DNA from: a virus
Taxonomy: Duplodnaviria > Caudoviricetes
Virus record (IMG/VR): IMGVR_UViG_3300033182_000943
Location: 1 to 63,597 of that record
Reading direction: 5' to 3' (one strand)
Length of the DNA: 63,597 bases
This document shows positions 4,750 through 8,407 of this stretch, piece after piece. The position numbers were made by a program, and so were the translations under genes. Below the pieces are notes generated by a model. That model made no database searches and was not told where the DNA came from. It saw nothing but the letters and a program-made list of their open reading frames with translations. Position 1 is the stretch's first letter. Every line of letters starts with the position of its first letter.

Positions 4750-4777
4750 ATCCAGGTTTTTCCGTTTACCCCTGGTA

Positions 4778-4806
4778 GGGACCGCTGTAATGGTGGTCCC
4801 TTTTTT
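4778..4806 (+). terminator. intrinsic terminator
   Basis: GGGACC..GGTCCC stem followed by TTTTTT. Confidence 0.85.
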
Positions 4807-5620
4807 GTGCCCAAAATACCCATCTAATAGGAAAACCCCTGCGTGGCTGAAGACCCAATCCGGGTATCCGGGTAAACCGGGTGCCCAAATAGGCCCAAAA
4901 TACACACATTTAGGCACATCTAGAACGGTCCTCTAGAGCAGCCCCCTAGAAGGACCGTCTAGAGCCCATTATTTCACACTATTTCCGGGCTATATCGGCC
5001 CAAAACGCCTAGTAGTTTGCAAAAGGACCCAAAAACACCCAAAAAAGAGGCTCTAGAAGGCCCAAATACCGCCTATATGGTAATATACGGTAATAGAGCC
5101 AAATAGTGACAATCCTCAGCTAACCTATCTACTACCATAGTAGCTACAACCATCCCCTAGTACCGTATACCGTATACCATATAAAAGGCTAATCCTACAT
5201 CTAACGGATCTACCCCTATACGGTATAAACAGTATTACCGGTCTAATCGCGGATCCGCCGTAGTTGTGGTAGTCCGGGGTGGTTATGGCCCTGGAGTACC
5301 CTAAGAGAATAATTCCCTCTAAGTGTATTTTTCTCTTGCCGCCGGAATGTGGGTCCGGGCCCATGGGCAGCCGCAGACCAAAAAATTCCAGCCGGAATTT
5401 CCAGACCCTCCAGAAGTGTGAGTAACCGGACATGTGATCTTAGCTCATTTCTAGTCTGGAAAAAAACTAGCCTGAAAAAACCGTGTGCCGCGAAGTGCCC
5501 ACTCACCTAGCGGACCCGGTCCGCAGACTACCCGCGGCTATCCCCTGGTAACCTAGGGTAACTTTTTTCTCTGGTCCCTTTCAGTTTTCCCGTAGACCTG
5601 TTACTATTATACTGTAATTA
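4807..5620. other. GC-elevated non-coding region rich in hairpins and palindromes (ncRNA, origin or terminus candidate)
   Basis: No credible ORF; many inverted repeats and CCCAAA repeats. Confidence 0.55.
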
Positions 5621-5637
5621 CCGCAAAGGAATACCTT

Positions 5638-5919
5638 ATGAAACTCTTATTCTGTAAACAGTGTAACGATATATTCCGGTTATACGTAGACCATCCCAAG
5701 ACCTGCCACTGTGGCAAGACGGTGGGACAATACGAGAAGGATGGACTACACGCCTGGTACCGCGGTCCTGCCGTTCCCCTCGGGTTTGCGAATAGTTCAT
5801 TCGTTATGGCCTTACAGTTCCAACCGGATGGTCCAGGGTTAGGTAAGGATTTCCACGCGTTTGTTATTCCAAAGGAATGCGATACGTTTGTGAAACAAGA
5901 TAGGAATACTACCGTATAA
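5638..5919 (+). CDS. putative zinc-ribbon protein
   Basis: CKQC ... CHCG. Confidence 0.7.
   Translation: MKLLFCKQCNDIFRLYVDHPKTCHCGKTVGQYEKDGLHAWYRGPAVPLGFANSSFVMALQFQPDGPGLGKDFHAFVIPKECDTFVKQDRNTTV
5893..5919 (+). promoter_or_regulatory. class II promoter AAAC-N18-TATAA
   Basis: Motif match upstream of ATG 5936. Confidence 0.55.
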
Positions 5920-8339: not shown

Positions 8340-8407
8340 TTTTTACTAATACTCTTTCAGAACATACATCCACTTGTTATAATTATTCTGAATTAATTAA
8401 ATAACAG

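Follow-up and report, generated by a model that had tools for sequence, protein, structure and literature searches.

A conserved non-coding module near phage tRNA genes

The stretch of DNA analyzed here, referred to as the window, is the 63,597-nt (63.6 kb) IMG/VR record IMGVR_UViG_3300033182_000943, a fragment of an uncultured virus (Duplodnaviria; Caudoviricetes) with an estimated completeness of 22%. Its + strand carries nearly all of the long open reading frames (ORFs), and ligase, baseplate, and tail-fibre genes are present. A gene-free gap of 888 nt (4750–5637) separates a gene encoding a 385-aa protein from a gene encoding a 93-aa protein; nine tRNA genes were identified in the window, starting 0.9 kb downstream of the gap, and the proximity to tRNA genes holds in the relatives as well. 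An initial reading of the letters and ORFs, hereafter the first-pass annotation, had described positions 4807–5620 as a highly structured region representing either a large non-coding RNA or a DNA signal. Comparison with related phages revealed that the gap holds a single-copy DNA module, rich in palindromes, that is conserved within one group of large aquatic phages. We tentatively read it as a cis-acting double-stranded DNA control region that would carry a bound protein, rather than as a gene for a large folded RNA.

Relatives were found via the 385-aa protein, with identities of 70–96%. The first round yielded 13 viral loci, and a profile search with the same protein contributed the best 80 of 178 metagenome stretches together with 22 viral loci. 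In all ten first-round loci carrying both flanking genes, the gap spans 1059–1161 nt, compared with 888 nt in the window, and none of these ten gaps contains an ORF above 78 aa. A total of 54 distinct whole gaps from many metagenomes were obtained, falling into 18 clusters; 36 of these gaps are below 93% mutual identity, and the counts over 36 relatives given below refer to them. The first-pass annotation had named positional conservation in related phages as a check, and the gap and its internal order indeed recur in all relatives that reach far enough. The order is fixed across the family, i.e., a terminator, a repeat-rich part of 0.5–0.75 kb, a core of ~190 nt, and a promoter-like site (Table 1).

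An nhmmer profile built from the core of the window (5295–5486) was run on 117 sequences and retrieved 83 full-length + strand rows; 46 distinct core sequences were aligned as A3, with three hits at locus edges left out. The core begins 549–778 nt past the last codon of the upstream gene in every locus that reaches it, except L109 and L112, where three inserted genes precede the module and the core lies 2.8 kb downstream. These are the two loci reaching far enough within a subgroup of 70–74% identity, and in L109 (4422–6443) three ORFs of 284, 182, and 85 aa are situated between the terminator and the repeat-rich part. Loci in which the core was not detected either end before its position or belong to this subgroup with inserted genes. 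Since the insertions in L109 and L112 leave the module with the downstream side, the module belongs with that side. The insertion of another locus of the subgroup (L010, 7285–8157) encodes a protein of at least 291 aa that is rich in N, S, and W and has a hydrophobic start.

The core is present in one copy, at 110–111 kb, in a 181.6 kb relative that is 65% complete by estimate, and the density of TCTAGA in this genome peaks at the module (6 per kb vs. a mean of 0.28). The module was not found in more distant phages, namely 21 loci with homologues of the 93-aa gene and LR756508, which carries a homologue of the 385-aa gene. A blastn search of the region against 50,697 phage records returned no match, and literature searches, which were not aimed at the exact motif, found no description of the module.

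Motif grammar and coding content

The GC content of the gap exceeds that of the window (0.483 vs. 0.365), as the first-pass annotation had observed, and the repeats listed there lie at the given positions. CCCAAA, for which at least six copies had been reported, occurs seven times in the gap vs. 0.34 expected by length, always on the + strand, with no TTTGGG; the three CCGGGT copies at 4860–4882 start at 4860, 4868, and 4877 (0.28 expected by length), and the CCGGGTA repeats are retained in the close relatives L015, L016, and L030. Palindromes are similarly enriched, with four TCTAGA (0.17 expected by length) and eleven CTAG (2.14 expected by length) in the gap.

The same motifs characterize the family. 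TCTAGA is found in 36/36 relatives, at about six copies per module on average (231 copies vs. 6.2 expected from the flanks), as is CTCTAGAG (61 vs. 0.1 expected), and CTCTAGA reaches 130 copies vs. 1.9 expected. Spacing is also preferred: 105 of the 421 consecutive CTAG–CTAG distances measure 11–13 nt, compared with 22.6 for random placement, and arrays equivalent to that at 4919–4964, with spacings of 11–13 nt, are present in L015, L006, L007, L003, L012, L035, and L114. Other motifs are strand-oriented, the ratio of + strand to reverse-complement counts over the 36 relatives being 40:1 for GCCCATA, 35:0 for ATAGCCT, and 41:1 for TAGTGGT. GATC is depleted in the modules (repeat-rich part and core), with 40 occurrences per strand vs. 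111 expected, making it ~2.8 times rarer than in the flanks.

Conservation extends to the composition and to short islands. The bin 300 nt before the core is C-rich in 36/36 relatives, and the bin 50 nt before it is G-rich in 35/36, while 17 of 20 representatives have CAGCTA at roughly the same distance from the core. Just past the upstream gene, TTTCCGTTT (4759–4767) occurs once on the + strand of the window. The core contains A-tracts and two small palindromes.

Across the 36 relatives, no ORF keeps its strand or its place, the longest frames in the standard code being 47–104 aa. In this respect the earlier statement that the region has no credible ORF stands, although two – strand ORFs, of 102 aa (5125–5433) and 87 aa, do exist in the gap. 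The core has no reading frame because alignment A3 contains indels of 1–2 nt; these also rule out a small ORF starting from the CATG of the core.

Table 1. Features of the gap and its flanking genes in window coordinates, in 5' to 3' order
Feature	Position	Strand	Basis or remark
Upstream gene, 385 aa	3592–4749	+	ORF; anchor used to find relatives
TTTCCGTTT, invariant island	4759–4767	+	Just past the stop codon, before the terminator; invariant in 9/9 rows of A1
Intrinsic terminator of the 385-aa gene	4777–4807	+	11-pair stem, then T run; terminator scan
GCCCAAA(W) copies, strand-oriented, and three CCGGGT (4860–4882)	4809–4901	+	Motif counts
Four TCTAGA-type palindromes	4919–4964	.	CTAG at 4920, 4933, 4946, and 4959; exact 13-nt spacing
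Further CCCAAA/GCCCAAA copies and a fifth TCTAGA (5052–5057)	4965–5103	+	Motif counts
CCTCAGCTA, short island	5104–5112	+	Place conserved across the family; alignments A1, A4
C/A-rich, then G/T-rich segment with a perfect 11-bp inverted repeat (5166–5176/5217–5227)	5113–5294	.	
Sequence-conserved core, ~190 nt, non-coding, no shared fold	5295–5486	+	nhmmer, alignment A3
Mini-hairpin or palindrome GCCCATGGGC (GCYCATGRGY)	5359–5368	+	A3 columns 103–112
Mini-hairpin or interrupted palindrome TTCC-AGCC-GGAA (family TTCY-AGCC-RGAA)	5386–5397	+	A3 columns 132–143
GC-rich nested hairpins, GCCGCG...CGCGGC around GCGGAC-CCG-GTCCGC	5488–5538	+	Only in the window's subgroup
Weak terminator-like hairpin, then T run (5563–5568)	5543–5568	+	Scan; GGTAACTTTTTT kept in 4/5 rows of A4
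Promoter-like site: CTTTCAG, 14 nt, TGTTACTAT (extended –10 type)	5578–5607	+	Consensus match; conserved in A1, A3
Downstream gene, 93 aa, conserved cysteines	5638–5919	+	ORF; followed by small ORFs and tRNA genes

Folding and covariation analysis

The first-pass annotation had recommended an Rfam scan and a search for covariation across homologues. At the gathering score, Rfam identified nine tRNAs and nothing else in the window, and only tRNA and tmRNA in 16 relatives, with no match in the module; the models of GOLLD and ROOL matched neither the window nor these 16 relatives. At E ≤ 10, the region returned just two rows, potC and U3, both at chance level and well short of the gathering score.

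Consensus folding pointed to a single element. The terminator at 4777–4807 is the sole strong family-wide consensus fold (–15.4 kcal/mol), and its 9-pair stack with six covarying pairs lies above all 10 column-shuffled nulls; in the search for stacks of covarying column pairs, it alone exceeded these nulls. Sliding consensus folds over the 36 relatives and over a 26-sequence subgroup revealed nothing beyond it. In the 46 cores, RNAalifold predicted three base pairs, and no + strand pair reached a mean pairing probability of 0.3, which one pair did on the – strand. Separate counts for each strand of seven subgroups gave at least as many broken pairs as two-sided changes in 13 of 14 cases, with no difference between the strands. 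Covariation supporting a large RNA fold was thus not detected, a negative result that is weakened in the poorly alignable part since all alignments are sequence-based.

Folding energies place the excess of structure outside the core. On either strand, the region as a whole folds better than its dinucleotide shuffles, 20 of which were made per strand, with z = –4.8 for the + strand and –5.6 for the – strand. The repeat-rich part does so even against a block-shuffle null that keeps local composition, with z < –2 in 20/20 lineages on the + strand and 18/20 on the – strand. The core of the window gave z = –0.1 (+) and –1.4 (–), and folding excess was likewise absent from the core in six representatives (z from –1.9 to +1.0 on + and from –2.6 to +0.9 on –), so the description 'highly structured' applies to the repeat-rich part but not to the conserved core. 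A shared long-range layout was not detected, as 2 of 120 bin pairs exceeded the null and the paired places vary between lineages. A folding excess on both strands with pairing that varies between lineages is the pattern that repeated DNA palindromes produce.

Individual pairings proposed by the first-pass annotation fared unequally. The 11-bp inverted repeat 5166–5176/5217–5227 is 100% complementary, and the palindrome at 5510–5524 can be read directly in the sequence. In the hairpin at 4919–4963, the arms 4919–4936 and 4946–4963 are 72% complementary without gaps and fold through UCUAGA/UCUAGA and CGGUCCU/AGGACCG. The pairing 5131–5157/5263–5288 appears neither among the 25 longest inverted repeats nor in the minimum-energy fold. 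As to the nested long-range pairs 5298/5555, 5351/5511, and 5364/5496, the letters are present, but such hexamers are estimated to occur dozens of times by chance in 0.8 kb, and the pairs make use of a part that is confined to the window's subgroup. Within that part, the window, L015, L016, and L030 share an identical stem in the hairpin at 5510–5524 but differ in its 3-nt loop (CCG, TCT, CTT, AGG); in L002, the position equivalent to 5488–5538 carries another sequence with a similar nested layout.

The two small palindromes of the core can form mini-hairpins. That at 5359–5368 has three pairs, with 99.3% of cells paired in the 46 rows; the pair types are UA 30, CG 12, and GC 3 at the first pair, CG 45 and GC 1 at the second, and GU 32 and GC 14 at the third. 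That at 5386–5397 has four pairs and 93.2% of cells paired, its inner pair being UA in 20 rows, CG in 12, UG in 4, and unpaired in 10. Both show covariation: together, they contain 28 cells with two-sided changes, compared with 10.2 in shuffles, and 0 of 500 shuffles reached 28. Besides the terminator, these two short hairpins are the only family-wide folds that received support.

Two further candidate structures were rejected. Long-range pairing of a 5' ACTCACACATTCTAGA island with TCTAGAATGTGAG in the core had no consistent best duplex partner in 36 sequences, and the sole 6-pair covarying stack between the island and core regions scored 5, within the null range of 4–7. The pairing matrix of a supposed large conserved hairpin between the C/A-rich and G/T-rich arms resembled the block-shuffle null. 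Within the limits of these tests, a large structured RNA with a conserved fold is not supported.

A putative cis-acting control region

The DNA-signal half of the first-pass proposal fits the data better than the RNA half. Of the possible DNA signals, a control region with a bound protein is the one we favour, though only tentatively, from the comparison of sequences. In such a region, transcription from the 385-aa gene would stop at the strong terminator, which would insulate the region on its upstream side. The array, in which TCTAGA palindromes, often as CTCTAGAG, recur about one helical turn apart and are mixed with strand-oriented GCCCAWATA-type repeats, would take up multiple copies of a phage or host DNA-binding protein that recognizes a specific sequence and is probably dimeric. 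The core, which in most relatives adjoins the promoter-like site, may serve as the upstream regulatory part and could set the transcription timing of the 93-aa gene and the tRNA operon.

The conserved place and order, the motif arrays and their strand orientation, the single copy, the lack of a shared RNA fold, the recurrence of the promoter-like site, and the identity of the repeat-rich part between L015 and L030 are consistent with these roles. The promoter-like pattern CTTTCAG-N14-TGTTATAAT has two matches in the window (5578–5607 and 8354–8383), compared with 0.27 expected, and the second copy precedes a 74-aa ORF and the tRNA-Leu/Arg group, which is the second tRNA group. The site in L006 scores 10 of 12 and has TG before TATAAT, as in extended –10 promoters. 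In most relatives (L003 4146–4332, L006, L009, L012, and others), a small ORF of 53–78 aa, measured from stop to stop, separates the promoter-like site from the 93-aa gene; the window's subgroup lacks it and instead has nested GC-rich hairpins of ~90 nt with a T run (5488–5568) between core and promoter-like site. Between L015 and L030, the repeat-rich part is 87% identical with 3% gaps, whereas third codon positions of the upstream gene are 59% identical.

In MetJ boxes and the parC site of plasmid R1, small dimeric repressors bind cooperatively to short repeats that act as operator or centromere. The module resembles them in its short repeats, about one helical turn apart and close to a promoter; it differs in that its repeat is a 6–8 bp palindrome set in variable spacers and the array spans 0.5 kb.

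A number of points weigh against the control-region interpretation. The promoter and terminator calls are consensus matches only, and no binding protein was found, the adjacent 93-aa protein, considered as a candidate binder, having neither a family nor a fold match. In the window's subgroup, the ~90 nt of GC-rich hairpins and the T run part the core from the promoter-like site, so the core-to-promoter distance is not fixed. The 36 relatives are mutually related, and the motif counts are therefore not independent events. One pair of the mini-hairpin at 5359–5368 is G–U in 32 of the 46 rows, which would also fit a + strand RNA, as would the strong strand orientation of the motifs, and the pair types of this CATG palindrome (UA 30, CG 12, GC 3) point to a real hairpin, whether in RNA or in extruded DNA, rather than to base-specific protein contacts. 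Finally, the window and L015 show the opposite of the L015/L030 pattern, with 33% gaps in the repeat-rich part, and recombination, not constraint, could be why that part is more alike than synonymous sites. The identity between L015 and L030 taken together with the indels between the window and L015 fits constraint combined with recombination.

Alternative explanations

A + strand long non-coding RNA of ~0.7 kb, with helices changing too fast for alignment-based covariation, is an unlikely alternative that nevertheless has several observations on its side. Such an RNA could conceivably display repeated UCUAGA and GCCCAAA motifs and so bind or titrate a protein. It would agree with the GC content above background, the strongly strand-oriented motifs, the + strand folding energy below the composition-preserving null in 20/20 lineages, and the two-sided changes in the core mini-hairpins, where one G–U pair fits the + strand only. 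It would also agree with the hairpin at 5510–5524, which in four close relatives retains its stem although each of the three loop bases varies, and with the T run that follows (5563–5568). These 3'-side hairpins and the T run are, however, missing in most relatives, no consistent promoter was found on the 5' side, and the – strand folds about equally well in 18 of 20 lineages. The lack of any Rfam match in the window or 16 relatives, of a consensus structure above hairpins of 3–4 bp, and of a common long-range layout also argues against this RNA, as does the fact that broken pairs within subgroups equal or exceed compensatory ones. Among public sequencing runs, six DNA runs were listed, each with 0.05 of the sampled words, and no RNA run. 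Adjacency to tRNA genes is a further point in its favour, since GOLLD and ROOL are reported as large phage non-coding RNAs located near tRNA genes (PMC5737381). The likeness concerns size and location only, i.e., a large non-coding element in phage DNA next to tRNA genes; the module has neither a match to an Rfam model nor a covariation-supported multi-junction fold, and what it conserves are primary sequence blocks and short palindromes. A more specific version is decidedly doubtful: a + strand RNA of ~0.7 kb without a single conserved fold, presenting UCUAGA and GCCCAAA/GCCCAUAUA on lineage-specific hairpins, might act as a phage decoy or sponge for a nucleic-acid-binding protein of host or phage, beside the tRNA genes of Bacteroidota-type jumbo phages.

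It is likewise improbable, though not to be dismissed lightly, that the palindrome array underlies a DNA site that serves something other than the control of transcription, such as an origin, a pac or terminus-related site, or a T5-like injection stop. The single copy in the 181.6 kb relative would suit such a site, and a RecA/KaiC/DnaB-like ATPase gene lies two genes upstream. For an origin, which the first-pass annotation had suggested, the cumulative GC-skew minimum of the window at 5709 appears favourable. In the 181.6 kb relative, however, GC skew is positive on both sides of the module (0.03–0.25 in every 5 kb bin), so the minimum at 5709 represents a local dip rather than a polarity switch; all long ORFs of this relative are on one strand. 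Of the 36 relatives, 9 have relaxed DnaA boxes (TTWTNCACA) and none has a strict one (TTATCCACA), and IHF-type sites were not found. Iterons are direct repeats of about 17–22 bp for an initiator, whereas the repeats here are palindromes of 6–8 bp spaced 11–13 nt apart. The GC-skew switch, conserved DnaA boxes, and iterons that would mark an origin were thus not observed. With regard to an adjacent A+T-rich unwinding element, the core has A-tracts, and its GC content per 50-nt bin (0.36–0.49) is not below that of the genome (0.30–0.37).

The repeats of P1 pac carry GATC and are under the control of Dam methylation. Clusters of palindromic hexamers (TCTAGA, 3–4 copies at 11–13 nt) at a unique genome site recall the seven hexanucleotide repeats of P1 pac (PMC11260489). 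The module differs from P1 pac in that its hexamer is TCTAGA, with GATC being depleted, in that the array is larger, with ~6 copies per module, and in that it is non-coding, with no terminase gene identified nearby. As for a terminus, among the 18 contigs longer than 50 kb with this locus, 13 stop no more than 8 kb from the end of the 385-aa gene. Within the module, contig ends are scattered: 23 contigs end on one side and 10 begin on the other, without a shared position, as assembly breaks would do where strains vary. The CATG palindrome was considered as a physical terminus and rejected; 3 of the 23 contig ends (of the shorter contigs L042, L028, and L017) lie within 1 nt of its centre, but the starts on the other side are scattered. 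A terminal repeat is not indicated either, as there is no second copy of the module in the 181.6 kb relative, whose sequence is an estimated 65% of the genome.

By analogy, the closest counterpart described so far is the repeat region, likewise untranslated, in which T5-like phages have their injection-stop signal (iss). Both would be large untranslated regions whose repeats, inverted repeats, and palindromic sequences are, in the present case, ordered alike among relatives. The T5 region has paired DnaA boxes, compared with the sparse relaxed matches and lack of strict ones noted above, and is present in each terminal repeat, whereas one copy was detected in the 181.6 kb relative. The present region also has no sequence match in the collection of 50,697 phage records, and its host is probably a member of Bacteroidota, not an enterobacterium, the latter comparison resting on a lead from protein similarity. 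The suggested T5-type injection stop is accordingly not borne out by the boxes, while the copy number bears on it only as far as the estimated 65% completeness of that relative allows.

An attP site or other host-derived sequence was also rejected. An 18-mer of the core gave at least 120 hits in 596 billion bases of reference genomes, which is roughly the chance level by estimate, and the core profile run on 120 loci with the 18-mer found the core in none of them (best E of 7e-4, over ~70 nt). In a Trichodesmium genome bin (L142, 1919–4516), the 18-mer occurs in five exact copies, four of them 193 nt apart, which suggests a tandem repeat there; by profile search, these copies are unrelated to the phage core.

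The gap could instead be mostly fast-changing spacer in a plastic region, with only the terminator and the promoter functional and the palindromes being by-products, i.e., relics of insertion or recombination, but we regard this as rather implausible. The locus is certainly variable: the window and L015 differ by 33% gaps despite a 95% identical upstream protein, genes have been inserted here in one subgroup, many contigs break here, and distant phages with a homologue of either flanking gene do not have the module. Relics would not, however, be expected to show a preferred spacing of 11–13 nt, the conservation of the core is well above the spacer level, and motifs, island order, and skew profile persist in 36/36 relatives from 18 clusters.

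A protein gene hidden by stop-codon reassignment or recent decay is very improbable: reading TAG, which is frequent because the gap is CTAG-rich, as a residue opens 235 codons on the – strand of the window (4910–5617, 15 TAG), but the longest frame under TAG, TGA, or TAA read-through shifts in strand and place among the 36 relatives, the standard frames of 47–104 aa are inconsistent in strand, the core has 1–2 nt indels, none of the nine tRNA genes of the window is a suppressor, and the neighbouring genes are intact under the standard code.

Implications for large aquatic phages

Large uncultured aquatic phages are annotated almost solely by their proteins, and the present locus adds a non-coding module of 0.7–0.9 kb with a clear motif grammar. 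The clade that carries it has structural proteins resembling those of Flavobacterium, Tenacibaculum, and Chryseobacterium jumbo phages. If the module is a control region, it would constitute a major regulatory node beside the tRNA operon and a defined DNA bait for its binding protein, and it would explain why assemblies of these phages frequently break at this place. The case also calls for caution: an array of DNA palindromes can pass for a large structured RNA if GC is high, folding energy is low, and tRNA genes are close by.

Flanking genes and host

A 1288-aa protein of the window has its nearest cultured relatives (26–31% identity) in jumbo phages of Flavobacterium, Sphingomonas (PAU), Chryseobacterium, and Tenacibaculum, and also in Lak phages; on the strength of this similarity, the host is probably a member of Bacteroidota.

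The 385-aa protein matches phrog_1362, a family of unknown function. It had no Pfam match and no solved relative (best E of 0.62), and a protein atlas places it near DUF932-bearing clusters, which is a lead only. In the 93-aa protein, cysteines 6, 9, 23, 25, and 81 are invariant in nine relatives; its structural model has a mean pLDDT of 68.6 and no fold match at E ≤ 0.001, and the protein has no family match. Homologues of the 93-aa protein are also encoded in much larger phage contigs, up to 545 kb. Downstream of the module, the relative L014 (5545–5875) carries a tmRNA gene (tag GNTELAMAA) together with eight tRNA genes.

The window has a second stretch without long ORFs, at 434–1455, upstream of the gene for a 152-aa protein that begins at 1456. 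This stretch is C-rich, with GC skew down to –0.30, has six CTAG in one kb, and holds a CTCTAGGGCTATCTAGA piece as well as GCCCAAAAA at 1384.

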